Positions 8,876-62,018 are shown, counted from the stretch's first letter. The stretch is 64,000 nt of DNA from Verrucomicrobiota bacterium (GCA_028872915.1 JAGWNY010000007.1:11820-75819); one strand, 5' to 3'. The notes: generated by a model from the sequence alone, not told the origin. Numbers and translations are program-made.

Positions 8876-10135
8876 CTAATTGCCGGCGAGAAGTTTTTGC
8901 CAGATTTCTTCGTTCAGTACGGCTCTTTTGAAGAAGCCTGTGTCGTCGGGCGGCGGGGCCGCCTTTTCGGGATGCAAGGGCATGTGAATGGTAAAGGTGT
9001 TGCCCTGGCCCGGTTCACTGTGGGCATCAATTGTGCCGCCATGATGATGCACGACAAAAAAGCAGGCCATGAGGTGAATGGCATATTCAGACGCGACGGC
9101 GCGCTGGGCGGCAAACGGGTCGAACACAGCGCGGAGGGCGTCCTGCGGAAGGCCGGGACCGTTGTCGGCTATATGAATGATCATTTCCGCCTGGCGCCCG
9201 CTGCCCTTCGACTCGGCGGAAAAGGTCAGGCGTTTTCCCGAGGGCAACGTGGCCAATTCCTCCTTGAGAAGCCATTCAAAGACGTGGAAAAACTTGTTTT
9301 TGTCCACCTGAAGCAGCGGCAGGGAATCGGGGACGTTGTTTTCAATTTCGATTTGCCGGGTGGCGATATCGGTTGCAAATTTCTCCCGCGCCTCTTCCAC
9401 CATGTCGCGCAGCGAAACCTTGTCGGCGAAGGGCGTGCGCGGATTTTCGGAGGCGGTCCATATTTCCTTCAGCAGATTGTTGATTTTTTCAATTTGTTCC
9501 TGGGCCCCCTGGTGATAGTCCGTCCAAAAGCCCGGATCGCGCAATTCGTTCTGGCTGGCGCGTTCATCGGCCATTTTGTCCGGGGCCAGTTCCAAAAATG
9601 TCTGGACGGCAACGAGCGAATTGCGGATGTGATGGCCCAAACCGGCGGCGATCAGTCCCAGGCTTACCATCCGGTCGGCAATCATCATGTTGCGAAGGAT
9701 TGACATTTTTTCATGAAGAAGCTGGTCGCGCTCCATCTGAACCATGAAAAATTCGAGGCCCTGGCGGAGGGTGAGTTCGAGCTGCGGCGGTTCCCAGGGC
9801 TTGGTGACATATTTATAGATTGCCCCGCTGTTCACGGCGGCAATGGCGGCGTCCATGTCGGCAAACGCGGTGACCAGAATCCGCAAAATGCGTGGACGAA
9901 GCTGCCGCGCCCGTTCGAGGAGCCAGACGCCCTTTTCTCCAGGCATCCGTTGGTCGGTCATCAATAATCCAATCTCATCGGCGTGTTGTTCAAGCAGGGC
10001 GTAACCTTCCTGTGCGCTGGGCGCGGTGAACAGGCGGAAGTTTCCGCCGAAGGCGCGGGAAAAATTCTTGAGCGATTTTTCCTCATCATCCACGTAGAGG
10101 ATGGCGAATTTTTTATAATCGTATTGGTTCTCCAT
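8876..10135 (-). CDS. Response regulator with an N-terminal receiver and a C-terminal histidine-kinase-like output domain (PhcR-like architecture)
   Basis: The receiver has ILYVDDEE...LLMTDQRMPG...VTAFAD...YVTKPW. It is followed by an H-box-like LGLIAAGLGHHIRNSL and a GHKL-like segment IADNGPGLP...FDPF. The G2 box looks degenerate (SEYAIHLMACFF instead of GxGLGL). The start overlaps the upstream kinase by 23 nt. Confidence 0.8.
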   Translation of the reverse strand: MENQYDYKKFAILYVDDEEKSLKNFSRAFGGNFRLFTAPSAQEGYALLEQHADEIGLLMTDQRMPGEKGVWLLERARQLRPRILRILVTAFADMDAAIAAVNSGAIYKYVTKPWEPPQLELTLRQGLEFFMVQMERDQLLHEKMSILRNMMIADRMVSLGLIAAGLGHHIRNSLVAVQTFLELAPDKMADERASQNELRDPGFWTDYHQGAQEQIEKINNLLKEIWTASENPRTPFADKVSLRDMVEEAREKFATDIATRQIEIENNVPDSLPLLQVDKNKFFHVFEWLLKEELATLPSGKRLTFSAESKGSGRQAEMIIHIADNGPGLPQDALRAVFDPFAAQRAVASEYAIHLMACFFVVHHHGGTIDAHSEPGQGNTFTIHMPLHPEKAAPPPDDTGFFKRAVLNEEIWQKLLAGN

Positions 10136-12962
10136 GTTGTGTCTCCGGGTCTGCGGCGGGTTTGGGCTTCAGGGGCAATTCCACGGTGAACTGGCAATTC
10201 CTGCCGGGTTCGCTTTTTACGGAGATGCGGCCTCCGGAACCTTGAAGAATGCGATAGCAGATGCTCAGGCCCAATCCCATGCCTTTTCCCACGTCCTTGG
10301 TGGTGAAAAAGGGATCAAATATTTTTTCCGCCAGCTTGGGATCAATGCCCGGCCCATTGTCGCGAACGACTATGAAACTGTTGCCGCCTTCCAGCCGCCC
10401 TTCAATCCAGATGGTTGGCTCGCCGTCCGTGAAGGTCTTTGTGCCAAGGGCGTCCACTGCATTTTGCAGCAAGTTGACCAGCACGTGGACGAGTTGGTTG
10501 CGGTTGACCCAGGCTGTCTGCCGCGGTTCGATATGGCGTTCGATCCGAATTTTGCCCTTCCATTCGCTCGACAGGAAGCGGAGGGCGGCGTCCACGGCGT
10601 TTTCCACCTCCACGGATTCCTCGCCGCCGCCCGGATGGGTGAACCTGCGCAAATCCGAGACTATGTCACGTACACGTTTGACGCCTTGTTCGACGTCGTC
10701 GAGAATTTCATCGTATTCGCTGCGGAATTCGGCGGGAAGCTCCTTGCTTTTGTTACGCAGGGCGAACAAGCCGGTGAGGGTGAAATTAAGGGGATTATTG
10801 ATTTCATGAATGATGCCGGCGCTCAGGCGGCCCAGCGAGGCTAATTTTTCGGACTGGACCAATTGCATTTCGGTTTCCTTGATTTGTTCGATGGCGGAGG
10901 TGAGCGCCCGGTTGCGGGTGGAAAGTTTGCGCTGGTAATCGTGGGTTTCAATAAGGTTTCGCACGCGCGCCTGGAGTTCATTGGAGGAAAAGGGCTTGGC
11001 CAGGAAGTCGTTGGCGCCGATGCGCAAGGCGTCGAATTTGGTTTCCTCATCGGCGCGGGCGGTGATCAGGATGATGGGGATGTTGACGGTGGCTTCACGG
11101 CGTCGCAATTCACGGCAGACCTCCAGGCCGTCCATTTCGGGCATCATCATATCCAGCAGGATAACGTCGGGCTGAAAATCCACCGCCTTGGCCGTGGCAT
11201 CGAGTCCATTGACGGCTTCCACGAGGTCGTATTTTTCTTCCAGCTCGGAGCGCAGATACCGGCGCATGTCCGGTTCATCGTCCGCAATCAGCACGGAGGG
11301 GCGGCGGCCGGTGATGGCCGGAGGCTTGGAACGTTCGCGGATGGCGGCCATGGCGGGGAACATCTCGGCGCGCCGATAAAGATTGGCAAGCCACTCATCG
11401 GAAAGGTCGGCACCATTGGCCGGCGCCGTCGCTGCCACGTCGCGTTTGGGTGGCATCTCCGCTTTTTTGAAAGGCAACCGCACTGTGAACTCCGCGCCCT
11501 GGCCCTCCCGGCTGGCCACCGCCGCCGTGCCGCCCATCATTTCGCACAGTTCCTTGACCAGGGCAAGGCCGATGCCCACACCTTGAAACTTTCGCTTCGA
11601 GGAAGTGTCCGCCTGCCAGAAACGGTCGAAAACGAACGGCTGCTGGTGTTCGGGAATGCCAGGGCCGGTGTCGGAAACGATGATCACCAATTCCTCCGCC
11701 CCCGTTCGAGTTGCCGGCGCCGTTGTTCCGTTGCCTGGCGGGGATGCGGGCAGGGCCGGCGCGGTGGAGGCCGCTTGTTTTTCGGCACGCAGCCGGACGA
11801 TGCCTTTTGCGGGCGTGAATTTGAGCGCGTTGAAGAGAAGGTTCAGCACGATTTTTTCGAGCTTGTCCTGGTCGGTCAGGACGGCTTTGAGCGCGGGGTC
11901 AACGAATGTTTCCAGGCGGATTTGCTTGTTTTCCGCCATGGGCCGCACAGCGCTGGCGAGGCCGCGGACGAATTCGTTCATGGCCAGCGGCTCGGCCTTG
12001 ACATCCATCCGGCCCGCTTCGAGGCGGATAAGTTCCAGGAGATCGTTGATCAATTTGAGGAGCCTCATGCCGTTGTTTTGCATCATCGCCAGTTCCTCCC
12101 GGACGTCTGGGTCAAGATGTTTGTCGAAACGCTGCAACAGGCGTTCCAGCGGCGAAAGCAGGAGGGTGAGCGGAGTGCGCATTTCATGGCTGATGTTCGC
12201 GAAAAACCGGCTTTTGAGGCGGTCCATTTCGACGAGTTTTTGGTTGGTGACCTCGAGGTCGCGTTTGTTCTGGTCCAATTGGTGGCGCAAGGCGAATTCG
12301 CTGAAACGGATGCGGTTGTAGAACCAGGAACCGGTCGCGATGAACAATCCCGTGACAGTGAGAAAATAAAGGTTATTGACGAGCGTGCCCTCAATGCTTC
12401 GCCTGTCGCAAAGGGCGCAGGCGACCAGGTAACTTCCAAGCGAAAAAAGAAAAACCAGAATGCTGTCGAAAAATGTCCACCGCAACAAAATGGCCGCCCC
12501 CAACATGACAAGATTCAGGCCGGCGTAGTAAGGCGAGTTGGCGCCGTTCGTCCGGTAAATCATCCAGGAAATGGACGCCAGAGGAAGAAAGGCGACCATG
12601 AAGCCGAGGAACCGGTAAATGCGCCGGCCAGCGCCGCTTTGAAGGGCAAACCAGACCAACGCCAAAAAGACGTCGCAGAACAGGCGCAATCGAATGAACT
12701 CGTCGAGATGCCGCGGATAAACGAAATAATCCAGCACCGTCCCGGCCGGCATGAAGATCAATGCCATAATGCATCCAAGCTTGTAATTGGCGATGCGGAT
12801 CAGTCTTTCATACTGGGCGAAAGCCACCTTGATTTCGTCGGCGAACTTGGTGGTGTAGGAAAGGCGCGTCAAGCGCGCCCACCCGGAGGTCGCCATCGCC
12901 CGGAGGGCCGGGATGCCGCGAGGCCCGAACTTTGCTGGATTGGCTGGGAAACCGTCAGGCAT
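10113..12962 (-). CDS. Polytopic hybrid sensor histidine kinase with HK-REC-HK architecture (two kinase cores)
   Basis: 949 aa with at least 6 predicted TM helices in residues ~60-215. Core 1: FFANISHEMRTPLT plus VSDTGPGIP...GVGIGLALV. Receiver: VLIADDEPDMRRYL...VILLDMMMPEMDG...LAKPF. Core 2: KLASLGRLSAGIIHEINNPLN plus VRDNGPGID...FDPFFTTK...GMGLGLS. Confidence 0.85.
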   Translation of the reverse strand: MPDGFPANPAKFGPRGIPALRAMATSGWARLTRLSYTTKFADEIKVAFAQYERLIRIANYKLGCIMALIFMPAGTVLDYFVYPRHLDEFIRLRLFCDVFLALVWFALQSGAGRRIYRFLGFMVAFLPLASISWMIYRTNGANSPYYAGLNLVMLGAAILLRWTFFDSILVFLFSLGSYLVACALCDRRSIEGTLVNNLYFLTVTGLFIATGSWFYNRIRFSEFALRHQLDQNKRDLEVTNQKLVEMDRLKSRFFANISHEMRTPLTLLLSPLERLLQRFDKHLDPDVREELAMMQNNGMRLLKLINDLLELIRLEAGRMDVKAEPLAMNEFVRGLASAVRPMAENKQIRLETFVDPALKAVLTDQDKLEKIVLNLLFNALKFTPAKGIVRLRAEKQAASTAPALPASPPGNGTTAPATRTGAEELVIIVSDTGPGIPEHQQPFVFDRFWQADTSSKRKFQGVGIGLALVKELCEMMGGTAAVASREGQGAEFTVRLPFKKAEMPPKRDVAATAPANGADLSDEWLANLYRRAEMFPAMAAIRERSKPPAITGRRPSVLIADDEPDMRRYLRSELEEKYDLVEAVNGLDATAKAVDFQPDVILLDMMMPEMDGLEVCRELRRREATVNIPIILITARADEETKFDALRIGANDFLAKPFSSNELQARVRNLIETHDYQRKLSTRNRALTSAIEQIKETEMQLVQSEKLASLGRLSAGIIHEINNPLNFTLTGLFALRNKSKELPAEFRSEYDEILDDVEQGVKRVRDIVSDLRRFTHPGGGEESVEVENAVDAALRFLSSEWKGKIRIERHIEPRQTAWVNRNQLVHVLVNLLQNAVDALGTKTFTDGEPTIWIEGRLEGGNSFIVVRDNGPGIDPKLAEKIFDPFFTTKDVGKGMGLGLSICYRILQGSGGRISVKSEPGRNCQFTVELPLKPKPAADPETQHGEPIRL

Positions 12963-14457
12963 TGTCAGGCTTTCTTATTTCAACAAGAATGTTCACCGCG
13001 TCACCTACGGCGCGGACATTGGATTCGGAACGCAGCCGTTCGGGAATCAGCATGGCAAGCTCCTCCGAGTTGCGATAAATCAGATGCCAATCCAGGACGT
13101 ATTCCATCCACCCCCGCGATGGGTTGTTGGAGTTGACGTTTGAAACCAGAACGAGGCCTCCGGGCGCGGCCAGTTCGTAAAAGAGTTCAATGAGCTTTTC
13201 GCAGACCGAATTCGCAAGATAGTCAAACAATCCGGCGCAATAGATGAAATCATAATGGCCCCGTTTAAACTCTGAATTATCCTTCAAAAACAGCATGACG
13301 GATTTCTTCGTGAGCCGGAACGCGCAATCACTGTCGTGTTGCCGGCATAATTTGCTCAACGTGTGGTCGGTGTAATGGATGGTTTCCTCGTTGAAATCCA
13401 GCAGCGAAAAATCCGTGTCGTCCGTGAAGGGAAAGCTGGCGATAAATCTCTGTACTTCCACCGCCGGGCCGCAGCCCAGGTTGAAGATGCGGGTGGGACG
13501 GCTGAAGGCGGCATGCTGTGAGACCTCCAGCTTAAGCCGTTCCGTGAGGGCGTCTATTCGGTGCCGATGCGCGACGACGGGCGATGTATTGAGAAAAAAC
13601 ACGTTTAGAAGCTTGGCGAACAGCGAATCGCCGGCCTGCGGCTCCCCCAGCATCATGTTTACCATCTCATAGTCGCCTGCGTATCCCAGTGGTTTTTCAA
13701 AAGTCCTGCGGATGAAGGGCGAACATAATACCAATGGGTGCAACATGCGCCGCGCGTAAATCGCGTGGCTGACATCCATTTCTGCGGCGTTTCGCGGCAA
13801 CGATTTTTCAAATTTCTCCACAAACGACCCCAGCACCGGAAGCACGGAGGGCAGTATTGTCTCCAATATCCGGCGTTCGTACATTGGACGAAAAGCGTCA
13901 CCTTGCGCCGCGACCTTCAGTTCAACCTTGTCCATCCACAATCGCAAGTCCTGCAGGAACAATTGCAGGTCCGCGACTGCCACCTTGAATTCCGGCGATA
14001 GCGGTGGCGCTTTTTGCCGCTCCTCCAGAAACCTTTTGACCTCGCCGCTGATTCCGCGCCGGTTGTCCAGCGCGATCAGCAGGTTCAAATCCGCCCAGTT
14101 CACCGGGTCCAATGTAGCTTCACAAACCAGTTTGGTGCCCGCGTCCACCACACTGTTGATGACGGCGCGGCCCGAGTAAATCTCGTCCTGTTGCATGAAT
14201 ATCCGCAGATCATCCAGTGCTTCCGACAGCCGGAGTACGGCCATCGGATTATACAACTCAAACACCACCCCGTTGCGCTGCAATCGGATTATGGTCCCCC
14301 GCAAGGCGGCGCCTTCCGAGGTTTGGAACAGAACGCAATTCCCATCCGCTCCCGCCTGATGAGGCGGCGGTCCTGGGGCCTTCTTTGGTGTGCTGGGTGT
14401 CAATGCCGACATACCATTTCCATCGCTTCTGCCGTTGCCATTGGAACTTCGGTCCAT
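12955..14457 (-). CDS. Class I SAM-dependent methyltransferase with a long N-terminal extension (PhcB-like by architecture and context)
   Basis: Motif I IFNLGCGPAVEV, post-I LLDFNEE, motif II YDFIYCAGLFDYL and motif III LAAPGGLVLVSNV all lie in the C-terminal third. About 330 aa of non-catalytic N-terminal region precede them. The stop overlaps the kinase start by 8 nt. The track start at 14508 is TTG; the first ATG is at 14455-14457. Confidence 0.7.
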   Translation of the reverse strand: MDRSSNGNGRSDGNGMSALTPSTPKKAPGPPPHQAGADGNCVLFQTSEGAALRGTIIRLQRNGVVFELYNPMAVLRLSEALDDLRIFMQQDEIYSGRAVINSVVDAGTKLVCEATLDPVNWADLNLLIALDNRRGISGEVKRFLEERQKAPPLSPEFKVAVADLQLFLQDLRLWMDKVELKVAAQGDAFRPMYERRILETILPSVLPVLGSFVEKFEKSLPRNAAEMDVSHAIYARRMLHPLVLCSPFIRRTFEKPLGYAGDYEMVNMMLGEPQAGDSLFAKLLNVFFLNTSPVVAHRHRIDALTERLKLEVSQHAAFSRPTRIFNLGCGPAVEVQRFIASFPFTDDTDFSLLDFNEETIHYTDHTLSKLCRQHDSDCAFRLTKKSVMLFLKDNSEFKRGHYDFIYCAGLFDYLANSVCEKLIELFYELAAPGGLVLVSNVNSNNPSRGWMEYVLDWHLIYRNSEELAMLIPERLRSESNVRAVGDAVNILVEIRKPDNA

Positions 14458-14634
14458 CACTGTCAGAATGAACGTTTTCCAAGCGAAAACAATGCCATTA
14501 TTGCCCAAAAACAGAATCCAATCCCCGGTCCGAAGATGTGTCGGCCGGCCATTTCATGTGCCATCCGAAGAGGTCCTTTCATCCCGCTCGGAATCATCCT
14601 GTAGCAACTTGGGACAGTGTCCCGGATGAAGGCG

Positions 14635-16173
14635 TCAACCCCGGTTTTGGCGTCCGTCTTCAATGGCCGGCTTGGGATGGGGGGGGAGCCGGTTGACAAG
14701 CGCGAGGAGCGTGACCGCTGAGGCGGTCTGGCGTTCAGCCTCTTCAATGCGCGCAAATTCTCCATACACTTCCGCGCGCAAGGAACCGTCTTGGCGCGGC
14801 AATTCCTGCCCCCCACCCATCCGCATGGCGCGCAGAACATGATGCGCCGTTATGGATTCAAGGGGACGGGCCGGCAGGCAGCCAGTTTCCGGCCGGGCAG
14901 TCTCGGTGACCAGGCGGGCGGCGATGAGCATTTGAAAAACCTGCTGTGCCAGCCGGGTGGGGATGTCCAGTTCCGCGGAAATTTCCTGGAGCGTTGCGGG
15001 CGGATCACCGCGTTGAAAACGTTGCGCGATGCACGTCATCAATCGCAACGCAATGAATTCGCGACCGCGTTGATTGACGTTTTCGACCAATTTCTCCTGC
15101 GCATAGACCCGGCGGTTTTGAAACGCATAGGCGACCTGAGCGCCGAACAGGAGAATCAGCCATGAAAAATAAAGGCCCACCATGAATACCGGCACCAGGC
15201 CCAGGCTGCCGTAAATTTTGCTGTTGGTCACGACGCGCGAGACGTAAAGAAAACCGAACACGTTGTTCAAGTGCCACAAAACGCCCCCTACCGCCCCGCC
15301 AATGAGAGCAGCCGCCGGCCGCACACGCGTATTGGGCACCAGCAAATACACCAGCGCAAACGCCAGCCACAGGACGATGAGCGGCAGCACGTCAAAGAGC
15401 AAACCGCCGGCGATCGGCGCTTGGCTCGCCAGCCAACGGGCAGCCTCCATGTGTGCCCCCCCGGCCAGTCCCAGAGCCGCAATCAGGAGCAGCGGCCCCA
15501 GCGTGATGACCGCCCAATAGAGGACGATGCGCCACAACCAACTGCGCCCGCGCGCCACACCCCAGATGTCGTTGAAGGTGGCCTCCACACCCGCCAGCAT
15601 CCGAATGGCGATGAACACCAGCACCACCATCCCCGTAACGCCCAGCGCGCCGCTGCGCGTGTTCTGGACAAAATGATGAATGTATTGCGCCGCCTCTTTT
15701 TGCGCCGTTTCGATGCGCCTGTTCCCAGCGGCCGGCGTTTGCCCGGGAGCCGGCGTCGGGCCGAAGGGCACGGCAATGGTCTGCGTGTTTGTCCGATTCA
15801 ACGGCACGGACAGGGACTGGCTCAAGTTCAGCGACACTTCCGCCCCGTTCGTTTCCAACCCTGCCGGCGGCATGACGTTGGAGACGAATTTGTCAATCAT
15901 CCCGTAAATTTTCTGCTCCCCTTCGCTTTTAAGCAGGCTGCTGGTGACGCTTATGGTCACGGCCAGGAGCGGAATCAGGGCCAGCAGCGTGGTGTAGGAC
16001 AACGCCGCCGCCCGAACCGGGCAGCGATTGCGCGCGAAACTTTTTCCCACCAACACCCAAAAATGGGCGAACCGGTCGAGCCGGGTCCATTCGCCTTCGG
16101 GCCATTCTTTTCCCGTGACCGCGCGGAGCCGCGCGGGAAATTTCGCCAGGCGTGAAAACAGCCTTTTTGCCAT
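14635..16173 (-). CDS. YihY/BrkB family inner membrane protein with a C-terminal winged-helix-like extension
   Basis: RCPVRAAALSYTTLLALIPLLAV and several TM helices are typical of YihY. The tail REFIALRLMTCIAQRF...ATLQEISAELDIPTRLAQQVFQMLIAARLV looks like an HTH. ATG at 16171-16173; the track start at 16215 is TTG and would overlap the murJ stop. Confidence 0.78.
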   Translation of the reverse strand: MAKRLFSRLAKFPARLRAVTGKEWPEGEWTRLDRFAHFWVLVGKSFARNRCPVRAAALSYTTLLALIPLLAVTISVTSSLLKSEGEQKIYGMIDKFVSNVMPPAGLETNGAEVSLNLSQSLSVPLNRTNTQTIAVPFGPTPAPGQTPAAGNRRIETAQKEAAQYIHHFVQNTRSGALGVTGMVVLVFIAIRMLAGVEATFNDIWGVARGRSWLWRIVLYWAVITLGPLLLIAALGLAGGAHMEAARWLASQAPIAGGLLFDVLPLIVLWLAFALVYLLVPNTRVRPAAALIGGAVGGVLWHLNNVFGFLYVSRVVTNSKIYGSLGLVPVFMVGLYFSWLILLFGAQVAYAFQNRRVYAQEKLVENVNQRGREFIALRLMTCIAQRFQRGDPPATLQEISAELDIPTRLAQQVFQMLIAARLVTETARPETGCLPARPLESITAHHVLRAMRMGGGQELPRQDGSLRAEVYGEFARIEEAERQTASAVTLLALVNRLPPHPKPAIEDGRQNRG

Positions 16174-16211
16174 ACGATTCGCTCGCACGCTAATCGGAGC
16201 CTCGCGGCAAG

Positions 16212-17783
16212 TCAATCGGCGGCGTGGCCAGTGGTTGCGCGTTTAAGCCGGGCCAGTGCGAAGGCAAACATCTCTGCCGCGGCCGGCACTTTGAACGCGA
16301 GCGCAATGGCCCCGTAAATTGCGCCGCCCAGGATGGACGGCACAAACACGGCGCCCATTCTCATGGCAATCCCATGATGGCCGAATTGACGTTCCCACAA
16401 TATCCATGCGCACCAGGCGGCCAGGCCGGCCGCTATTCCGGAAAAGGCGAGCACGGGAACCGATTTCTTGAATGGCGCCAATTCCAGGGGGCCCAGCCTT
16501 TTGTGGAGCGCAAAGAGCAAAAGTCCCGCGTTGCATGCGGATGTCACCGTGTTGGCAATGCCCAATCCCCCTTGCCGCAGCGGAAACACCAGCCCCCCGG
16601 CCAAAACGGCGTTCAGAACCAGGCAAAAAATGCTGATCTTCATCGGCGTCTTGATGTCCCCAAGCGCATAAAAGGCGCGCGCCAGAACATTGACGCTCGA
16701 ATAAGCTACCAGCGCCGGCGCGAGGCATTCCAGCGCGAACGATACCTCGCTGGTTGCGGCGGCCTTGAAACTGCCCCCTTGAAAGAGAAGCCGGATGATG
16801 GGCGTGGCAAGGACAAACAACAGGACGGACGAAATCCAGTTCACAAAAAGCAACGTGGCGAGGCCGCTCCGCACCGTGGACCGGAATTCTGAATGGTTTT
16901 TTTCGACCGCGAGACCGGCGAGCGTGGGTAGCATATAGGTGGCGAGCGAAATTCCGAACATCCCCTGCGGCAGTTCCATCAGGCGCACTGCGAAACCGAA
17001 TGATGACACGATGCCCGCGCCCACCCAGAACGCGAGGAATTGCACCACCGCAATGTTGATTTGGAACGCCGCCACCCCAATGGCGCCGGGTATCATGCGG
17101 CTCACCACCAGCCGCACCGTTTCATTGTTCCATGGCGAGACCCAGCGATAGCGGAATCCTTCGCGGAACAACACCGGCAGTTGAAACGCCGCCTGGGCCG
17201 CCCCGGCGGCCAGAACGCCAATTGCCAGTCCAAAAATTTGTTGCGGCAGCCCATGGCCCATCTGCGGCGCCAGCCAGAAGACCGACGCAATCATGACCAC
17301 GTTCAGCGCCGTGGCGCCCATCGCCGGAATAAAAAAATAGCCCCGCGCATTGAGCATCCCCATAAAAACCGCGGCCAGGCAGACCAACAGCATGTAGGGA
17401 AACATCACGCGCAACAGCCGCAACATCAGTTCCGTCCTCGGCTCGAATGCGTGCGCCGCCAACGCAACCGACACGCCCAACAATACAATGCCAACCACAG
17501 CCGACGCGCCAATGATCAGCGCCGAGATGACGCCATTCGCCGCCCGCCACATTGCCTGCTCGCCTTCCGTTTTCTCCTTCTCCTTGAAAATAGGGATGAA
17601 CGCCGCCGTCAACGCCCCTTCGCCCAGCAACCGGCGGAATAGATTAGGAATCTGGAAGGCCAGCAAAAAAGCGTCCGTGACCCAGCCCACCCCCATGAAC
17701 CGCGAATAGACCATCTCGCGGGCCAGCCCAAGCAACCGGCTCGTGAAAGTCGCCGCAGCCATCGCGCCGGAGGATTTGAGCAT
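16212..17783 (-). CDS. murJ: Lipid II flippase MurJ
   Basis: From the internal ATG (17781-17783): MLKSSGAMAAATFTSRLLGLAREMVYSRFMGVGWVTDAFLLAFQIPNLFRRLLGEGALTAAFIPIF, the canonical MurJ N-terminus, then ~14 TM helices. The 126-aa upstream extension in the track is not MurJ-like. Confidence 0.9.
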   Translation of the reverse strand: MLKSSGAMAAATFTSRLLGLAREMVYSRFMGVGWVTDAFLLAFQIPNLFRRLLGEGALTAAFIPIFKEKEKTEGEQAMWRAANGVISALIIGASAVVGIVLLGVSVALAAHAFEPRTELMLRLLRVMFPYMLLVCLAAVFMGMLNARGYFFIPAMGATALNVVMIASVFWLAPQMGHGLPQQIFGLAIGVLAAGAAQAAFQLPVLFREGFRYRWVSPWNNETVRLVVSRMIPGAIGVAAFQINIAVVQFLAFWVGAGIVSSFGFAVRLMELPQGMFGISLATYMLPTLAGLAVEKNHSEFRSTVRSGLATLLFVNWISSVLLFVLATPIIRLLFQGGSFKAAATSEVSFALECLAPALVAYSSVNVLARAFYALGDIKTPMKISIFCLVLNAVLAGGLVFPLRQGGLGIANTVTSACNAGLLLFALHKRLGPLELAPFKKSVPVLAFSGIAAGLAAWCAWILWERQFGHHGIAMRMGAVFVPSILGGAIYGAIALAFKVPAAAEMFAFALARLKRATTGHAAD

Positions 17784-27849: not shown

Positions 27850-29889
27850 ATGAAAACGATTTTAATCCTCTCAGACCATCCGGATTTTGCCGAAACAATC
27901 CGGTCCACCCTGAATACAGACCATTATCGGGTGGTGCATCGGCTCAATGTGGACGACGCGGAACCGATTCTGGCGCATGGACTGGCGTCGGTGGCGATTT
28001 TGGACATAGATTTGGCCGGGGTGAGCGGGGTTTGGGTGATTGAGCGGCTGAGGCGCAGGGCTGCCAAATTGCCTTTAATCGCCTATACGAATGAAAGCCA
28101 GTCGGAATGGGAGGAAGAGGCTTTCTTGCAGGGGGTGACGCACGTGCTCCTTAAGCCGGTCCGCGGACGGCTGTTGAATTCCTTACTGGAACGGTTGTGG
28201 ATGACATCGGCGCCGAGGGCGATGCTGGCGCCTGCTCCGGTCCAGCAACCGTTGTTGCGGGCGCCTGAGTCGCCGCTGGTGGATCGGAACGTCAATGGGC
28301 CGCAAACACTGGAGATGCTGCGGGATTTTTCCTCCATCCTGACCCATTCGCTCGATGCGGAGCGGATGTTGAAACAATTTCTGATGTTTCTGCGGGAGGT
28401 ATTGAGCATCAACCGGGCGGCGATTTTTCTGAACCGACCGGCGGCGCCCCTCACGGAGGCCCTGTCGCCGGACAGCGGACGCCGGCTGCGGGCGGCTGCG
28501 GCAATCGGGCTTTCATCGGGATTGCTCGAACATTTTGAACTTTCGCTGGATTCGGGCATTGGGGGGCAACTGATGAAGTTGGGGCGGATTTTGCGGCGGG
28601 ACAATGAGGAGGCGCGTGTGGATGGCGAGACGCAGAAGGAGTTTGAATTGCTGAGCGCGCAAGTGGCGGTGCCGATTCCGGACCGGGAAGGGATCGTGGG
28701 CGTGGCAGTATTTGACGGACGGGTGACGGGCGAGCCTTTGGTGAACGCGGAACTGGAATTGATCTTTCACCTGCTCGAACAGGTGGGTTTGGCGCTTCGA
28801 AACATCTGGCTGCACGACCAACTTGCGGGGAATCACGAGATGATGACGGATGTGCTGCGTGAGTTGAGCAGCGCGTGTGTTGTGATTGGGCGTGATTTGA
28901 AATTGCTCCATGTCAACAAGGCCGCGCGGCGGCACTTTGGCCACCGGCTCAAAAATCGGGCGGGCGATCTGGAATTCAGCGACCTGCCACAGGCGCTGGG
29001 GGCGAAAATTTATACGGTGTTGAAGACCGGGGCAACCATCGGCCCGTTCCGATATCAGCCCGAGAATTCGCCGAACACCGTTTACTCCATCAGCATCGTG
29101 CCGTTCCAGCGAGGCGAATCGGCGGTGCCGGCGTCGGCCTTGTTGACGGCGGATGATTTGACGCAGACCGAGCAGTTGCAGCACCTCCAACTGGAGGCGG
29201 CGAATCTGAGATTGATCAAGTCCATGGCAGACCGGCTGGCGCACGAGATTGGAAACACCATGGTTCCGCTTTCCACCCACCAGCAATTGCTGGCTGAAAA
29301 GTTCGCCGACAAGGAATTTCGGGAATCGCTTGATCACGCCCTGGCCGATGGGGTGCGTCGGGTTTCGCGGTTGATCAATCAAATGCGGTTTTTGGCGCGG
29401 GGCGGGCGTTCGGAGCACGAAGCGATTCCGGTGCAACAGTTGATTGAAGAGGCTTATCACGAAGCGCTCAAACACCAACCTTCGGAATGGGCGCGGCTGA
29501 CGTACGAAAACGGCGGCCCGCCCATCGTCGTCATGGGCGAACGGGCCGCCCTCCGCCACGCGCTGGCTGAAGTGATGCTCAATGCGCTCCAGGCCAATCC
29601 AAAAGAACCGCTGGTGGCCGTGCGGGCGGGAACCGAAACCGCAGGAGGACACCATCATTTGAAGATCGAAGTGCAGGACAATGGCGCCGGTTTTACGCCT
29701 GAAGCGGCGGAAAAGGTTCCGGCCCCGTTTTTCACGACGCGGACGGTCGGACTCGGCCTGGGGCTGACAGTGTGCCGGCGGATTCTTGAATCGCACCGGG
29801 GGAAACTCGTCATTCCGCCGCCGCAGGAAGGTCGCCCGGGGATCGTCCAGATTTCGCTGCCGATGGAGATGGCGGGGGTTGTAGAATAG
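27850..29889 (+). CDS. Sensor histidine kinase with N-terminal receiver-like domain and GAF domain
   Basis: REC-like ILILSD...VAILDIDL...LLKPV. GAF-like LREVLSINRAAIFL...VAVPIPDREGIVGVAVFDG. H-box MADRLAHEIGNTMVPL. HATPase VQDNGAGFT...FFTTRTVGLGLGLTV. Confidence 0.8.
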   Translation: MKTILILSDHPDFAETIRSTLNTDHYRVVHRLNVDDAEPILAHGLASVAILDIDLAGVSGVWVIERLRRRAAKLPLIAYTNESQSEWEEEAFLQGVTHVLLKPVRGRLLNSLLERLWMTSAPRAMLAPAPVQQPLLRAPESPLVDRNVNGPQTLEMLRDFSSILTHSLDAERMLKQFLMFLREVLSINRAAIFLNRPAAPLTEALSPDSGRRLRAAAAIGLSSGLLEHFELSLDSGIGGQLMKLGRILRRDNEEARVDGETQKEFELLSAQVAVPIPDREGIVGVAVFDGRVTGEPLVNAELELIFHLLEQVGLALRNIWLHDQLAGNHEMMTDVLRELSSACVVIGRDLKLLHVNKAARRHFGHRLKNRAGDLEFSDLPQALGAKIYTVLKTGATIGPFRYQPENSPNTVYSISIVPFQRGESAVPASALLTADDLTQTEQLQHLQLEAANLRLIKSMADRLAHEIGNTMVPLSTHQQLLAEKFADKEFRESLDHALADGVRRVSRLINQMRFLARGGRSEHEAIPVQQLIEEAYHEALKHQPSEWARLTYENGGPPIVVMGERAALRHALAEVMLNALQANPKEPLVAVRAGTETAGGHHHLKIEVQDNGAGFTPEAAEKVPAPFFTTRTVGLGLGLTVCRRILESHRGKLVIPPPQEGRPGIVQISLPMEMAGVVE

Positions 29890-34214: not shown

Positions 34215-35075
34215 TCAGCCGTGTTTGGGCGAGGGGCCGGTTTCGCCGCGCGTGACGACGGGATGGCGGGGGCGGTTGTGTTCGCTCGACCATCGGCGGA
34301 ACCATTCGATGGAACCATGAGTTTTTGGGGGTTGCAGGATGACGGTGGTAAGGAAGGCGCGCATTTCTTCGAGGGTGACGCCCCGGACAAGTTGGCCTTT
34401 GTGCGCATGGGAGATGAGGCCGTTTTCCTCGGAGACGACCACGACCACGGCATCGGTTTCCTCGCTCAAGCCGATGGCGGCGCGGTGGCGGGTGCCCAGC
34501 GACTTGCTGAGGCCCTGCCGCTGGGTAAGCGGAAAAATACAGGCGGCGTGGGTAATGCGGTCGCCCTTGATGATGACGCCGCCGTCATGGATGGCGTTGT
34601 TGGGGAAAAAGATGGTTTCGAGCATCTCAGGAGTGGCTTCGCAATCCACGGGCACGCCGGACTCGACGGCGTCATGAAGTTGAATGGCTTGTTCAATGGC
34701 GATGAGCGCGCCAATCTTGGCTTCGGAGAGCCGTTCGCACGCTTTGATAATGACCTCAATGCTTTCGCGCTGCTCATGGGGTGTGACAAAGAGGGGAAGA
34801 TTCCCCAATTGCGCCAGGAGACGGCGAAGTTCGGGCTGGAAGATGATGGCGACGCCAATGGCCAGATAGGTGAGGAAGGTGCCCAACAACCATTTCAAGA
34901 CCTGCAATTTTAAGGCGTAGATGATCAACTCCAGGGCCAAAAGGACGACGACAAAGCCGACGACAATGGGCCATCCGCGCGTTCCGCGCAGGAAACGCGA
35001 GGCGTAATAGATGGCCACGGCCAGGATGAAAATTTCCAAGGCCGGCCGCCAGCTATCTTGAAGATAGTGCCACAT
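34215..35075 (-). CDS. cdaA: Diadenylate cyclase CdaA (membrane-bound DAC domain)
   Basis: Three N-terminal TM helices, then the DAC motifs GALIAIE, HDGGVII, LGTRHRAAIGLSEETDA and VVVSEENGLIS. Confidence 0.9.
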   Translation of the reverse strand: MWHYLQDSWRPALEIFILAVAIYYASRFLRGTRGWPIVVGFVVVLLALELIIYALKLQVLKWLLGTFLTYLAIGVAIIFQPELRRLLAQLGNLPLFVTPHEQRESIEVIIKACERLSEAKIGALIAIEQAIQLHDAVESGVPVDCEATPEMLETIFFPNNAIHDGGVIIKGDRITHAACIFPLTQRQGLSKSLGTRHRAAIGLSEETDAVVVVVSEENGLISHAHKGQLVRGVTLEEMRAFLTTVILQPPKTHGSIEWFRRWSSEHNRPRHPVVTRGETGPSPKHG

Positions 35076-55859: not shown

Positions 55860-57584
55860 TCAGCGTAACGGCAGCAGAATCCGAACCGTCGTTCCCCGCC
55901 CGTTGCGCGAGAGAATGCGGATGCCGCCGTGGTGGGTTTCGATGATCCGGCCGACAATCGCCAACCCCAGCCCGGCGCCCTTGGATTTGGTGGTGGCCAG
56001 CATGGTTGTAAAAGCCTGGCGGCGCAGTTCCTTGCTCATGCCCTTGCCGGTGTCCCTGAACTCCACCGAGACGTGGTTCGGTATTTCCGCAGTGGCTGGC
56101 ACACGAACGGCGCGGGTGCGGACGGTCAGCGTTCCGCCGTCGGGCATGGCTTCGGCGGCGTTGAGGAGGAGGTTCAAAAAGACCTGTTCGAGTTGCTGGG
56201 CGTCGCCCATGACCAGGGGCAAATCCGCCTGCAATTGGGCGAGGCGCCTGACATTTTGATTGGCGAGCTTGTGCCGGACGAGCAGGCCCAATTCATCAAT
56301 GAGTTCGTTGATATTGACCGGCGCCATGCGCGGCTCGGTGGTGCGGGCAAAGGCAAGGATTTGTTCGACGATTTTGTTGAGATGCCCGATTTTGGCGTCA
56401 ATGAGGCGGGCGTCCTTGGCGCGCGGATCGCCCGGGGGAAACTGCAAATTGAGCGAATGATAGAGCAGTTTCATGACCGTGAGCGGGTTGCGGATTTCGT
56501 GGGCGACTTCGGCGGCCAGGAGGCCCAGGGCGGATAATTTTTCGTTCTGCCGCAACTGTTCCTCCACGTCCACCACGCGCTCGTAAAGCCGCGCTTTTTC
56601 GATGGCGATGGCGGACAATTCGGCCAGGGCGATCAGGATGTGGATTTCCTCGTTGGAAAAATGGTAGGGCCGTCCGGTATAAACGTTCAGTGTGCCAATG
56701 GCCTGGCCGGAGAAAAGGAGCGGCACGCTGAGCAGTGAAACCAGTCCTTCCCGCCGCGCCAACTCGACGTTTTGATAACGGGTGGAGGTCTGGACATTTT
56801 CCAGTTGGAGCGGTTTCTTGCGCCGCACGACGACCCCCAGGACGCTGTCTTCAACGCTCAGGCGCGGCTTTTTCGTATAGGCCTCGCCGGCGCCGTGGCT
56901 CGCGCGCAGGGCGAGCCATTCGCGGCGCTCGTCAAGCATCATAATGGAGCAGGTGCGCGCGTGCATGAGTTCGCACGCCTCGCGGGTGATGGCGCGCAGG
57001 GCTTCATCCAGATTGAGAGTGGAATTGATGGCCCGGCTGACGGCGGCCAGCGATTCAAAGAGCCGGGCCTTCAACCGCAACTGCTCGTATAGCCAGGTGT
57101 TTTGAATCACCTTGGCGGCCTGGCGCGCCAGCTCCTGGAGCACTTCCTGGTCCTGGACGCTGAAAGCGTCGCGGCGGTCGGAATCCACATTCAAGACGCC
57201 GCGAACTTCGCCATTGACCTCCAGCGGCACCGCCAACTCGGATTTGACGCCGCGCCGCGCCGCGACATAACGGCGATCCTGGCGGACGTCGCCCACGCGC
57301 GCCGGTTTCCCCGAACGCGCGACCCAGCCCGTGATGCCTTCGCCCACCCGCAATTTAAGCTTTGTACCGGCCGCCGGGAGGCGTTCCGAGGCCGAAATTT
57401 CCAGAAGACCGGTATTGGGATTGATGAGGATGACGGAGCCGCTGGAAGCGTGCATAAGCCGGACGGCTTCGCGGACGATGAGTTGCAGGGCTTCCTGTGG
57501 GTCCAGCGTGGAATGAATGACGTTGCTGACCTGATAGAGCAGGCGCAGTCGTTCCAGAAGCACTTTTAAAGGTTCATCATTCAT
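55860..57584 (-). CDS. Cytoplasmic GAF-GAF sensor histidine kinase
   Basis: Two GAF domains (GEGITGWVARSGKPARVGDV...ELAVPLEVNGEVRGVLNVDS, and a second copy ending LLSVPLLFSGQAIGTLNVY). H-box LLAAEVAHEIRNPLT. HATPase FRDTGKGM...GAGLGLAIV. The ATG at 57582-57584 overlaps the lptG stop (ATGA). The 90-aa track extension is not kinase-like. Confidence 0.85.
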   Translation of the reverse strand: MNDEPLKVLLERLRLLYQVSNVIHSTLDPQEALQLIVREAVRLMHASSGSVILINPNTGLLEISASERLPAAGTKLKLRVGEGITGWVARSGKPARVGDVRQDRRYVAARRGVKSELAVPLEVNGEVRGVLNVDSDRRDAFSVQDQEVLQELARQAAKVIQNTWLYEQLRLKARLFESLAAVSRAINSTLNLDEALRAITREACELMHARTCSIMMLDERREWLALRASHGAGEAYTKKPRLSVEDSVLGVVVRRKKPLQLENVQTSTRYQNVELARREGLVSLLSVPLLFSGQAIGTLNVYTGRPYHFSNEEIHILIALAELSAIAIEKARLYERVVDVEEQLRQNEKLSALGLLAAEVAHEIRNPLTVMKLLYHSLNLQFPPGDPRAKDARLIDAKIGHLNKIVEQILAFARTTEPRMAPVNINELIDELGLLVRHKLANQNVRRLAQLQADLPLVMGDAQQLEQVFLNLLLNAAEAMPDGGTLTVRTRAVRVPATAEIPNHVSVEFRDTGKGMSKELRRQAFTTMLATTKSKGAGLGLAIVGRIIETHHGGIRILSRNGRGTTVRILLPLR

Positions 57585-58678
57585 CGCACGCGCGCCGTGA
57601 GGAAGAGGCCCGCGGCGCCAAAAACGAAATTTGGCAACCATGCCGCCAGCCAGCCGGGCCAATGGCCGCCCGACCCCATCGCAATGCTGACCTGTTGCAC
57701 GACAATATACAGGAAACAGATGAAGATGCTTCCGGCAACGCCGAAAAAAAGATTGCGGCGACCGGAGGGCGCGCCGAAGGGAATCGCAATGAGCACCACC
57801 ACCAGACACGTCCAGGGCGCGGCCAGATGTTGTTGCAGTTCGGTGCGCAGCCATTGGGCGCGCGCATCAGGCAGAATGCGGAAATAATCCAGAATGTCGG
57901 CCAGTGGAACGAGTTTTTTTCGGATGCCCAAGCGTTCGTATTCATTGATTTTCATTTGAATATGAATTTCGCGGGGTGTTTCGGTGAATTCGGGCACGGA
58001 CAGCGCGTTCGTCTGGAGCAATGGCTTGAATTGGCCGCCGGGCGCGGCCTGGGCGTCTTCGGTGGCATCGAAAAACACCCACGCGCCGTTTGTAAAGACG
58101 GCGCGGCCGGCGTTCAATTCGCGGCCCAGGCCGGCGGGCGAAATCCAGTTGACCTGCGGCTGGAACAATTCGCCCGTGCGGTAATCAAAGCGGGTAAAGC
58201 CCCAGATGCGATGGGATCGGTCATTTTGAAACCGCGGCTCTTTTTGGGCTGCCACTGGTGCCTTGTGGATGTAGCGGCCCAGGATTGCGGTGGCCCAGTC
58301 GTCGCTGCGTGGCGCGGAGAATTCATTCAATGCGAACAGGGCGAGGCTCGCGACGAATCCCATGAAAAAATAAGGCACGGAAATGCGCCACAGACTGATG
58401 CCGGTGGCGCGCATGGCGGTGATTTCGTTGTGGCGGGCCAGATGAGTGAGCGTGTAAAGAAGCGCGAGGAGCAAGGCGATGGGCAGGGCGGTGACCAGAA
58501 AACCCGGCGTCCACGCCACGCACAATTCCACCACGTCCCAAAAATGGAGTTTGGCCGCCTGCAATTCGTCCAATTGCGTGAAAAGGTTGTAGGAAATCCA
58601 GAAAATGAGAAAACCGCCGAGGCTGTAGGCCAGGGGCGCAAGCAATTCGCGGAACAAATACCGATCAAGCAGCCGCAT
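57581..58678 (-). CDS. lptG: LptF/LptG family LPS export permease
   Basis: From the ATG at 58676-58678: MRLLDRYLFRELLAPLAYSLGGFLIFWI..., 6 TM helices and a large periplasmic loop, matching the YjgP/YjgQ pattern. The choice between LptF and LptG is not secure. Confidence 0.8.
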   Translation of the reverse strand: MRLLDRYLFRELLAPLAYSLGGFLIFWISYNLFTQLDELQAAKLHFWDVVELCVAWTPGFLVTALPIALLLALLYTLTHLARHNEITAMRATGISLWRISVPYFFMGFVASLALFALNEFSAPRSDDWATAILGRYIHKAPVAAQKEPRFQNDRSHRIWGFTRFDYRTGELFQPQVNWISPAGLGRELNAGRAVFTNGAWVFFDATEDAQAAPGGQFKPLLQTNALSVPEFTETPREIHIQMKINEYERLGIRKKLVPLADILDYFRILPDARAQWLRTELQQHLAAPWTCLVVVLIAIPFGAPSGRRNLFFGVAGSIFICFLYIVVQQVSIAMGSGGHWPGWLAAWLPNFVFGAAGLFLTARVR

Positions 58679-61287: not shown

Positions 61288-61881
61288 CTAAATCTCCTCA
61301 TCCTTTTTCACATCGGCAAGCAGTGCCGCCATTCTTCGTCGCGCATAAAAGAGCCGCGACATCACCGTCCCGGTCGAACACCCCATGATCCGGGCAATTT
61401 CCTTGTATCCCAAAGCCTCAAATTCATGCAATACGAGCACCGTCCGGTGAGCGTCGGACAGCCGCCCAAGCGCGGCGTCAATCCTTTGCCGCAGTTCTGA
61501 CAGTTCCAGACGCTCCGTGGGATTTATGGTTACGGGCGGCAAACTTTGTTCGCCCGGCACGGCATCGAGCAGTTCAATGGATTCGGTCCGCAGCCGCTTT
61601 TGCTGACGCAGCCGATCCAGGCAAAGGTTGATCACAATGCGCGTCATCCATGTGCCAAAGGCCGATTCAAACTGAAACTGGCCCAGCCGTTGCCAACCCT
61701 TGATCCATGCTTCTTGTGAAAGATCAATTGCCTCATCTTCATTCCGCATTATGCTGATGGCGCGGGCATGGACTTGATCCCGATGCCGGGCCACCAATTC
61801 TTCAAAGGCCTCCGTGTCCCCGTCCCGGGCCGCCCTTGCAAGCGTTGCATCATCAGCCGTGGAATAACCTTTTCCTAACAT
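61288..61881 (-). CDS. ECF-type RNA polymerase sigma factor (sigma-70 family)
   Basis: Region 2: AFEELVARHRDQVHARAISIMRNEDEAIDLSQEAWIKGW...FGTWMTRIVINLCLDRLR. Region 4: RTVLVLHEFEALGYKEIARIMGCSTGTVMSRLFYARR. ATG at 61879-61881; the track start at 61914 is TTG. Confidence 0.88.
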   Translation of the reverse strand: MLGKGYSTADDATLARAARDGDTEAFEELVARHRDQVHARAISIMRNEDEAIDLSQEAWIKGWQRLGQFQFESAFGTWMTRIVINLCLDRLRQQKRLRTESIELLDAVPGEQSLPPVTINPTERLELSELRQRIDAALGRLSDAHRTVLVLHEFEALGYKEIARIMGCSTGTVMSRLFYARRRMAALLADVKKDEEI

Positions 61882-62018
61882 GGATTGGACGGGGAACGGT
61901 GCGATTTTATTCAACTACATGGCGCAATCCAGATGAAAAGACAGTCCCCCGCCATTGGCCGCCTGGATAAGCGCCGGTTGGCGCGCGGCGGCGCCGGCAG
62001 TTCGCGGATTGGGAACTG

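Follow-up and report, generated by a model that had tools for sequence, protein, structure and literature searches.

A three-gene cassette of Verrucomicrobiota homologous to phcB, phcS and phcR/phcQ, a candidate Phc-type signalling system

Cell-cell signalling of the Phc type is generally considered peculiar to Ralstonia and its close Burkholderiaceae relatives, in which it controls virulence. The methyltransferase PhcB makes 3-hydroxymyristic or 3-hydroxypalmitic acid methyl ester (3-OH MAME or 3-OH PAME), which is sensed by the kinase PhcS (PMC8578825, PMC7694676, PMC13320629); PhcR combines a receiver with a histidine-kinase domain and has no DNA-binding domain, and PhcQ is composed of a receiver only (PMC8578825). 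The Phc literature that we found concerns the Ralstonia solanacearum species complex throughout, and the literature searched contained no description of Phc-like systems outside Ralstonia and its relatives, Verrucomicrobia included, nor of a characterised quorum-sensing system in Verrucomicrobiota. Here we analysed a stretch of 64,000 nucleotides (nt) from a Verrucomicrobiota bacterium (GCA_028872915.1, JAGWNY010000007.1:11820-75819; the window), in which three minus-strand genes between positions 8,876 and 14,457 had been likened, in a preliminary description, to phcB, phcS and phcR. Sequence comparison led to the solid conclusion that these genes are homologous to phcB, phcS and phcR/phcQ and travel together. 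That they form a verrucomicrobial version of a Phc-type cell-cell signalling cassette is the interpretation that we favour on balance, and Verrucomicrobiota would probably make and sense a methyl-ester-like signal of their own. The three genes are:

12955..14457, minus strand: gene for a PhcB-family S-adenosylmethionine (SAM)-dependent methyltransferase (500 residues), the presumed signal synthase, assigned from the PhcB alignment, invariant columns and an AlphaFold2 model
10113..12962, minus strand: gene for a hybrid sensor kinase (949 residues) with MASE8-like sensor, kinase core 1, receiver and kinase core 2, assigned from Pfam and the PhcS alignment
8876..10135, minus strand: gene for a PhcR/PhcQ-like receiver protein (419 residues) with a degenerate kinase-like output domain, assigned from the PhcR and PhcQ alignments

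Judged by its sequence, the methyltransferase is a member of the PhcB family. Its alignment with PhcB of Ralstonia pseudosolanacearum (P0263, named by NCBI 'class I SAM-dependent methyltransferase PhcB [Ralstonia pseudosolanacearum]') covered 435 residues with 35% identity (E-value 2e-94), that with the orthologue of Cupriavidus necator 461 residues, likewise with 35% (E 2e-95), and it did not cluster with unrelated methyltransferases, bearing out the PhcB relationship suggested earlier. Since the alignment with PhcB begins at window residue 41 and PhcB residue 10 and includes the N-terminal 300 residues, what had been described as a large N-terminal extension of a SAM methyltransferase is part of PhcB itself and a normal feature of the family; the assignment as a methyltransferase was correct. 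The family is already labelled in databases through names derived from IMG and KEGG, the closest relatives carrying the JGI name 'extracellular factor (EF) 3-hydroxypalmitic acid methyl ester biosynthesis protein'. Relatives at E ≤ 0.001 made up 4461 of the 8000 candidates scored, an exhaustive search of 1.84 billion representatives yielded 528 clusters (50% identity level) at E ≤ 1e-30, and a scan with one genome per species recorded a relative in at least 589 genomes. An alignment of 84 sequences spanning verrucomicrobial and Burkholderiales members contained 44 invariant columns, with the invariant motifs KPLGYAGDYEMV, AHRxR, motif I GCGPAxE, D354 and YCAGLFDYL. Identities of 45-60% inside the verrucomicrobial group and of 32-35% to Burkholderiales are enough to tell the two groups apart. 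Pfam returned weak class I matches (Methyltransf_23/12/25) at residues 318-458, all under the gathering score, and nothing meaningful in the N-terminal 320 residues at E-values up to 10, and no NCBIfam model matched the protein (0 matches). It is plausible from the 35% identity that the enzyme catalyses the same class of reaction as PhcB. A tblastn search against plasmids retrieved one full-length relative, on a Paraburkholderia graminis plasmid (36% identity), where it is followed by a kinase and two response regulators; the other 139 matches were shorter, covered the C-terminal half alone and were set aside as a different family.

The AlphaFold2 model of the methyltransferase (mean predicted local distance difference test score, pLDDT, of 87) divided the chain as follows:

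14347..14457, minus strand: disordered Gly/Asn-rich N-terminal tail, residues 1-37 (pLDDT <50)
14110..14337, minus strand: PilZ-fold beta-barrel without cyclic di-GMP (c-di-GMP) motifs, residues 41-116 (domain model pLDDT 91, Foldseek)
13510..14082, minus strand: helical domain, residues 126-316, probably a substrate-binding cap to judge from the model, in which it is formed by helices; it carries KPLGYAGDYEMV and AHRxR
12973..13494, minus strand: class I (Rossmann) SAM-binding catalytic domain, residues 322-495 (Pfam, invariant GCGPA and D354, fold matches)

The Gly/Asn-rich tail is limited to verrucomicrobial members and, in the alignment, absent from Burkholderiales PhcB sequences. When the barrel was compared with the PDB using Foldseek, most of the top matches were PilZ domains (PP4397, BcsA, YcgR, Alg44, MrkH), with query-normalised TM-scores (TMq) of 0.6-0.75 and marginal E-values of 2.6e-3 to 0.1. 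The barrel thus has the fold of PilZ c-di-GMP receptors such as YcgR, BcsA, Alg44 and MrkH but lacks their c-di-GMP motifs: RxxxR and [DN]xSxxG occurred together in none of the 84 family members, and no Pfam PilZ match was obtained in the barrel, whose own invariant residues are R61, E67, S78, E79 and Y94. Window R53 is aligned to R22 of Ralstonia PhcB, where the change R22C is known as adaptive and modulates Phc signalling (PMC6989110). This mutation site lies in the barrel, which argues that the barrel matters for PhcB function. A PilZ-fold barrel starts the PhcB family, authentic Ralstonia PhcB included (locus L085, 7001-8404); no Pfam model lies over the first ~320 residues of the family, and a PilZ-like barrel of PhcB was not mentioned in the literature searched. 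Whole-chain fold matches were small-molecule methyltransferases (3ocj, SgvM, AprA MT2, CurJ and other polyketide C-methyltransferases, SibL and MfnG), several of the alignments spanning 300-500 columns, well past the ~175-residue Rossmann core, and these matches fit an enzyme acting on a small molecule and not on a protein. One distant relative (L091, 852-2858) is a methyltransferase of 668 residues with an N-terminal receiver (Response_reg plus PhcB-like region), preceding the same MASE8 double-kinase and receiver-ATPase genes. To judge from this fusion, the presumed signal synthase may be controlled directly by phosphorylation, as expected if it is under two-component control. Several other family members, of 590-760 residues, also have N-terminal extensions.

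The second gene lies directly 3' of the methyltransferase gene, and its product is, on the alignments, a PhcS-type sensor kinase extended by a further kinase core (core 1) and a receiver. Pfam recognised a MASE8-like region, HisKA/HATPase_c, Response_reg (residues 557-668) and a second HisKA/HATPase_c, and Pfam MASE8 is on record for kinase orthologues. The protein had been introduced as a membrane sensor kinase; the sensor is indeed MASE8-like and resembles that of PhcS, but two kinase cores with a receiver between them make the protein a hybrid, organised as follows:

12258..12797, minus strand: MASE8-like multi-pass membrane sensor, residues 56-235, with the motif SPYYAGLNLV (Pfam, PhcS-like matches)
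11463..12245, minus strand: kinase core 1, residues 240-500, with His259 and Asn378, of classical HisKA type and absent from PhcS (H-box ISHEMRTPL; N, G1 and G2 boxes)
10947..11300, minus strand: internal receiver, residues 555-672, with Asp561/562, Asp604, Thr634 and Lys656 (Pfam Response_reg, E 9e-30)
10158..10895, minus strand: kinase core 2, residues 690-935, with His719 and Asn834, of PhcS type (PhcS core alignment)

Residues 55-497 aligned with residues 16-439 of Ralstonia PhcS, membrane region included, at 25% identity (E 1.6e-34), and residues 677-930 with the PhcS kinase core at 38% (E 2.5e-51). The membrane segment, which has several hydrophobic stretches between residues 62 and 187, on its own matched PhcS-like genes of Paraburkholderia and Cupriavidus (30-32%, E 5e-16 to 4e-18), and the sensor motif of the window recurs as SPYYVGLNLA in Cupriavidus PhcS and as SLYYAGLNLA in Ralstonia PhcS. 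Both H-boxes, the receiver residues and both sets of N, G1 and G2 boxes were conserved in 62 aligned kinases. The best PDB match of the receiver and core 2 half (residues 545-949) was LvrB (8vc9), over its full length (E 1e-32), and this half shows the LvrB-type pattern of an N-terminal receiver on a core of dimerization and histidine phosphotransfer (DHp) and catalytic (CA) domains, with intact catalytic motifs (Asp604, His719).

The third protein consists of a receiver and an output domain:

9761..10108, minus strand: receiver of the third protein, residues 10-125, with Asp16/17, Asp61, Thr89 and Lys112 (59 orthologues)
8966..9688, minus strand: degenerate DHp/ATPase-like output domain, residues 150-390 (59 orthologues)

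End to end it aligned with PhcR at 26-28% identity (E 2e-30 to 2e-35), and its receiver and linker aligned with PhcQ at 42-44% (E 3e-40 to 3e-42), PhcQ being the closest relative. Pfam detected Response_reg, a weak HisKA and HATPase_c. Together with the full-length PhcR alignment, these matches substantiated the proposed receiver protein with a histidine-kinase-like output, an assignment with which the published descriptions of PhcR and PhcQ agree; the output domain was found to be degenerate. All 59 orthologues keep D16, D17, D61 and K112 in the receiver; Thr89 is kept in 57 and replaced by Ser in two. In the output domain of these orthologues the H-box His168 is kept in 38 of 59, and the N-box Asn and the GxGxG G2 box are absent; the G1 motif DxGxG (D324 in 58 of 59), the F-box, H364 and G367 (each 59 of 59) are conserved. 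The LvrB-type architecture is thus present in the third protein with degenerate motifs, LvrB matching its ATPase end alone (E 2e-10). We infer that the third protein has a pseudokinase-like output acting via protein contacts. Pfam found no DNA-binding domain in the cassette.

The 80 loci most like the window, almost all from Verrucomicrobiota, were examined, and synteny was assessed by tblastn with domain-level queries in the 64 loci having at least 5 kb downstream. The order methyltransferase, MASE8-type kinase, receiver protein was found in all 64, and a kinase-like tail was detectable on the receiver protein in 63. The kinase layout of the window (sensor, core 1, receiver, core 2) recurred in 60 loci; core 1 is missing from the other four (L006, L043, L052 and L060), whose sensor runs straight into core 2, the very layout of PhcS. 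The kinase is a single open reading frame (ORF) of 870-945 residues in about 61 of the 66 orthologous loci, and short, PhcS-sized kinase ORFs (456-527 residues) number five by ORF count. The short-kinase cassettes look like intermediates between the Ralstonia layout and that of the window, and additional receiver-kinase genes frequently lie downstream of them. Many loci, but not the window, have a fourth gene that encodes a receiver-kinase or a kinase. When the sensor segment was used alone as a query, just the gene directly 3' of the methyltransferase was matched, among the matches listed. Of the genes beside the window cassette, the BrkB/Rrf2-like gene, murJ and gatB were not found in the 80 related loci and hemL was found in one; because the flanking genes differ and the order is kept, the three genes move as a unit.

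The order is also kept in distant cassettes of 31-35% identity (L086, L090 and L091) and in a metagenome-assembled genome labelled 'Omnitrophica' (L087), two further distant loci (L088 and L089) being too short to judge. The Ralstonia locus L085 encodes PhcB (467 residues), PhcS (442 residues; MASE8, HisKA, HATPase_c), PhcR (374 residues; receiver, HisKA, HATPase_c) and PhcQ (336 residues; receiver), and the same gene order is found in the phc operons of Ralstonia, Cupriavidus and Paraburkholderia. The phcB-phcS-phcR-like arrangement put forward for the window therefore agrees with L085 in both order and protein families, and the three-gene synteny held in all 64 loci and in distant members. 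A complete cassette with the window architecture occurs in Verrucomicrobiae bacterium DG1235 (L051, DS990592.1, 7001-8389 and downstream), apparently an isolate genome, which would make this strain a cultured carrier and a practical choice for laboratory work. In one locus, the cassette of 32% identity in L086, a gene for a FadL/Toluene_X-type outer-membrane channel (454-1674) lies just 5' on the opposite strand, a position that fits traffic of a hydrophobic molecule.

The window has no separate phcQ, its sole PhcQ-like match being the receiver of the third protein, and no LysR domain was detected in the 23 of 40 window ORFs scanned with Pfam, a set that included all those of 200-330 residues. 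The gene phcA is not part of the Ralstonia operon either, being absent from locus L085. The initial statement that the window lacks phcQ and phcA homologues accordingly stands for a separate phcQ and, as regards a LysR protein, for the 23 ORFs scanned.

In the mechanism that we propose, the substrate that the PhcB-family methyltransferase O-methylates with SAM would be a carboxylic acid, in the likeliest case a (3-hydroxy) fatty acid, and the resulting hydrophobic methyl ester would leave the cell, partition into the membrane and be sensed there by the all-membrane MASE8 domain. The sensor would control core 1, whose His259 would phosphorylate Asp604 of the internal receiver; the receiver would in turn switch on the PhcS-type core 2 (His719) by the mechanism of LvrB-type receiver (Rec)-controlled kinases. 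LvrB is the prototype of these kinases, receiver phosphorylation freeing the catalytic domains (PMC13269768). Core 2 would then phosphorylate Asp61 of the third protein, and the degenerate kinase-like domain may pass this state by protein contact to a partner encoded outside the cassette. A relay within one polypeptide is the most economical reading of the kinase. Catalytic competence is indicated by the invariant SAM motif I and D354 of the methyltransferase and by the conserved phosphorelay residues of the kinase and of the third-protein receiver. We infer both the signal molecule and any response to cell density. A broader proposal, which we advance tentatively and with less confidence than the Phc-type assignment itself, is that a Phc-type system is widespread in several orders of Verrucomicrobiota, combining a self-made volatile or diffusible methyl ester, a two-stage kinase cascade in a single polypeptide and a pseudokinase-type receiver protein, with the PilZ-like barrel as a novel part of the synthase that serves regulation or substrate handling.

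The cassette resembles Ralstonia Phc in gene order and in the homology that extends over the whole length of each protein, that is, a PhcB-type methyltransferase with PilZ-like barrel, helical and Rossmann domains, a MASE8 kinase and a receiver protein with kinase-like C-terminus. It differs in that pairwise identity is only 25-44%, that the sensor of the window kinase is followed by an extra core and a receiver before the PhcS-type core is reached, and that the PhcR-like domain lacks N-box and G2 box, a third of the orthologues having lost the His as well. The window further has no separate PhcQ and no PhcA-type LysR found nearby (23 ORFs scanned), its methyltransferase bears the disordered Gly/Asn-rich tail, and the host belongs to Verrucomicrobiota. 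A likeness of working only is seen with CqsA/CqsS of Vibrio and LqsA/LqsS/LqsR of Legionella, in which an alpha-hydroxyketone synthase gene adjoins that of a multi-pass membrane kinase, followed by a receiver protein, and in which kinases of the CqsS/LqsS type detect a hydrophobic, fatty-acid-derived signal within the membrane. The synthases of those systems are unrelated to that of the window (pyridoxal-phosphate-dependent acyltransferase versus SAM methyltransferase), and their sensors belong to another family. The Lvr system of pathogenic Leptospira, composed of the hybrid kinase LvrA and of LvrB, is approached through the receiver and core 2 half of the window kinase, which matches LvrB over its full length; LvrA was the top NCBIfam match of the kinase and LvrB was among those of the third protein, both far below the cut-offs. 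As the Lvr system is described, one kinase phosphorylates the receiver that unlocks the next kinase, and the description names no methyltransferase component, which sets that system apart (PMC13269768). In the window both stages belong to a single membrane protein that bears a MASE8 sensor, and an LvrC-like partner was not identified; the likeness is one of general architecture and protein family and does not amount to orthology.

Several points weigh against a Phc-type signalling cassette. An identity of 35% to PhcB does not fix the substrate of the methyltransferase, and the Pfam MASE8 match of the window kinase (E 6.4e-5, 23.6 bits) lies below the cut-off of 26.2 bits. The third protein cannot simply copy PhcR, since it has neither N-box nor G2 box and its His is not conserved. 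No PhcA-like LysR was found among the 23 window ORFs scanned, and the cassette has no DNA-binding domain. Phosphotransfer from PhcS to PhcR/PhcQ has not been shown biochemically even in Ralstonia (PMC8578825). The sequence-run search for the cassette DNA found DNA metagenomes only and no RNA run carrying it.

The alternative that survives best, although we think it unlikely, is a circuit homologous to Phc but private to the cell, in which a carboxylic acid of intracellular, membrane or foreign origin is modified, detoxified or quenched by the methyltransferase and the MASE8 kinase monitors a lipid-like cue or the state of the membrane. The uncertainty over the substrate at 35% identity fits such a circuit, as do a sensor lying almost wholly within the membrane and the absence of export, LysR or density-related genes from the cassette, and the FadL/Toluene_X channel beside one distant cassette would also be compatible with uptake of a hydrophobic compound. 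However, the sole characterised members of these families are a signal synthase and the adjacent MASE8 receptor kinase (PMC8578825, PMC7694676), and an enzyme and a sensor that are inherited together without exception, as in these 64 loci, usually point to a synthase and its receptor. We give far less credence to a CheR-like protein methyltransferase that acts on the kinase or the receiver protein for adaptation, with no small-molecule signal. A weak Pfam CheR match in one relative (P0098, E 0.0034, under the cut-off), the automated NCBI name 'MCP methyltransferase, CheR-type' (MCP, methyl-accepting chemotaxis protein) on one Paraburkholderia orthologue and a protein lysine methyltransferase as the best, marginal match of the enzyme in a PDB sequence search (E 0.001 only) hint at this function, but they are opposed by the full-length homology to PhcB, a small-molecule ester synthase, by fold matches that are almost all small-molecule methyltransferases, with CheR not among the 50 listed, and by a kinase in which no Pfam match suggests MCP-like methylation helices. 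Chance adjacency of an ordinary two-component system and an unrelated methyltransferase, conceivable given how abundant histidine kinases and methyltransferases are (170 NCBIfam families match the kinase), is refuted by the synteny analysis, in which the order persisted in all 64 loci and in distant members amid differing flanking genes, the sensor segment found just the gene 3' of the methyltransferase among the matches listed, and the phc operons of Ralstonia, Cupriavidus and Paraburkholderia shared the order.

A Phc-type signalling cassette thus remains our preferred reading, and if it is true, methyl-ester signalling would extend to a major and poorly cultured environmental phylum, the same-family synthase-sensor-regulator cassette being found across Verrucomicrobiota of soil, freshwater, mine drainage and other habitats. 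The variant wiring may also help to resolve the signal path downstream of Ralstonia PhcS, the relevant features being the kinase-receiver-kinase arrangement in one protein, the conserved degenerate PhcR-like output and the synthases fused to a receiver in some relatives.

At the level of DNA, the methyltransferase ORF extends over 12955..14508 from a TTG; the ATG at 14457, which gives 500 residues, fits the N-terminus 'M...GNG' of the orthologues. As read in the DNA, the kinase ATG overlaps the methyltransferase TGA by 8 nt (ATGCCTGA), and the ATG of the third gene (10135), with a GGAG a few bases 5', lies inside the end of the kinase gene (TAA at 10113-10115), an overlap of 23 nt. The first ~32 residues of the window kinase have no counterpart in orthologues, so that ATG 12896 (Met23) and TTG 12872 (Leu31) are equally possible starts and the 8-nt overlap is contingent on ATG 12962. 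The minus-strand trio with overlaps of 8 and 23 nt initially reported is therefore present in the DNA, but the smaller overlap depends on the start chosen and overlap itself is not conserved in relatives, where the cassette genes are tightly spaced (mostly <40 nt). The region 5' of the cassette is:

14458..14634, minus strand: intergenic region of 177 nt 5' of the methyltransferase gene, the presumed promoter region

Scans for sigma-70 promoters and intrinsic terminators found nothing in the flanking intergenic regions, with site counts close to the shuffle expectation. The cassette has housekeeping neighbours (hemL, gatB, a BrkB/Rrf2-like gene and murJ), gatB being the gene directly after it. 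The gene 5' of the cassette (14635-16215, minus strand) encodes a BrkB/YihY membrane domain fused to a weak Rrf2-like winged-helix region, the latter scoring 28 bits, just under the Pfam cut-off; the combination of BrkB and Rrf2 was also seen in L087 (1-975), ~5 kb 5' of the cassette, and not beside the cassette in the other 80 loci. The DNA of positions 8876-14457 was present exactly in a mine-drainage metagenome run (all sampled words) and partially in soil metagenome runs, and the closest relatives of the window DNA are Verrucomicrobiota (Limisphaerales, Verrucomicrobiia). Other signalling genes of the window, with no evidence of a link to the cassette, encode a protein of 679 residues with a receiver and HATPase_c, another possible Rec-controlled kinase (27850-29889, plus strand), a double-GAF histidine kinase (55860-57854, minus strand), an extracytoplasmic function (ECF) sigma factor (61288-61914, minus strand) and a CdaA-type diadenylate cyclase (34215-35075, minus strand).

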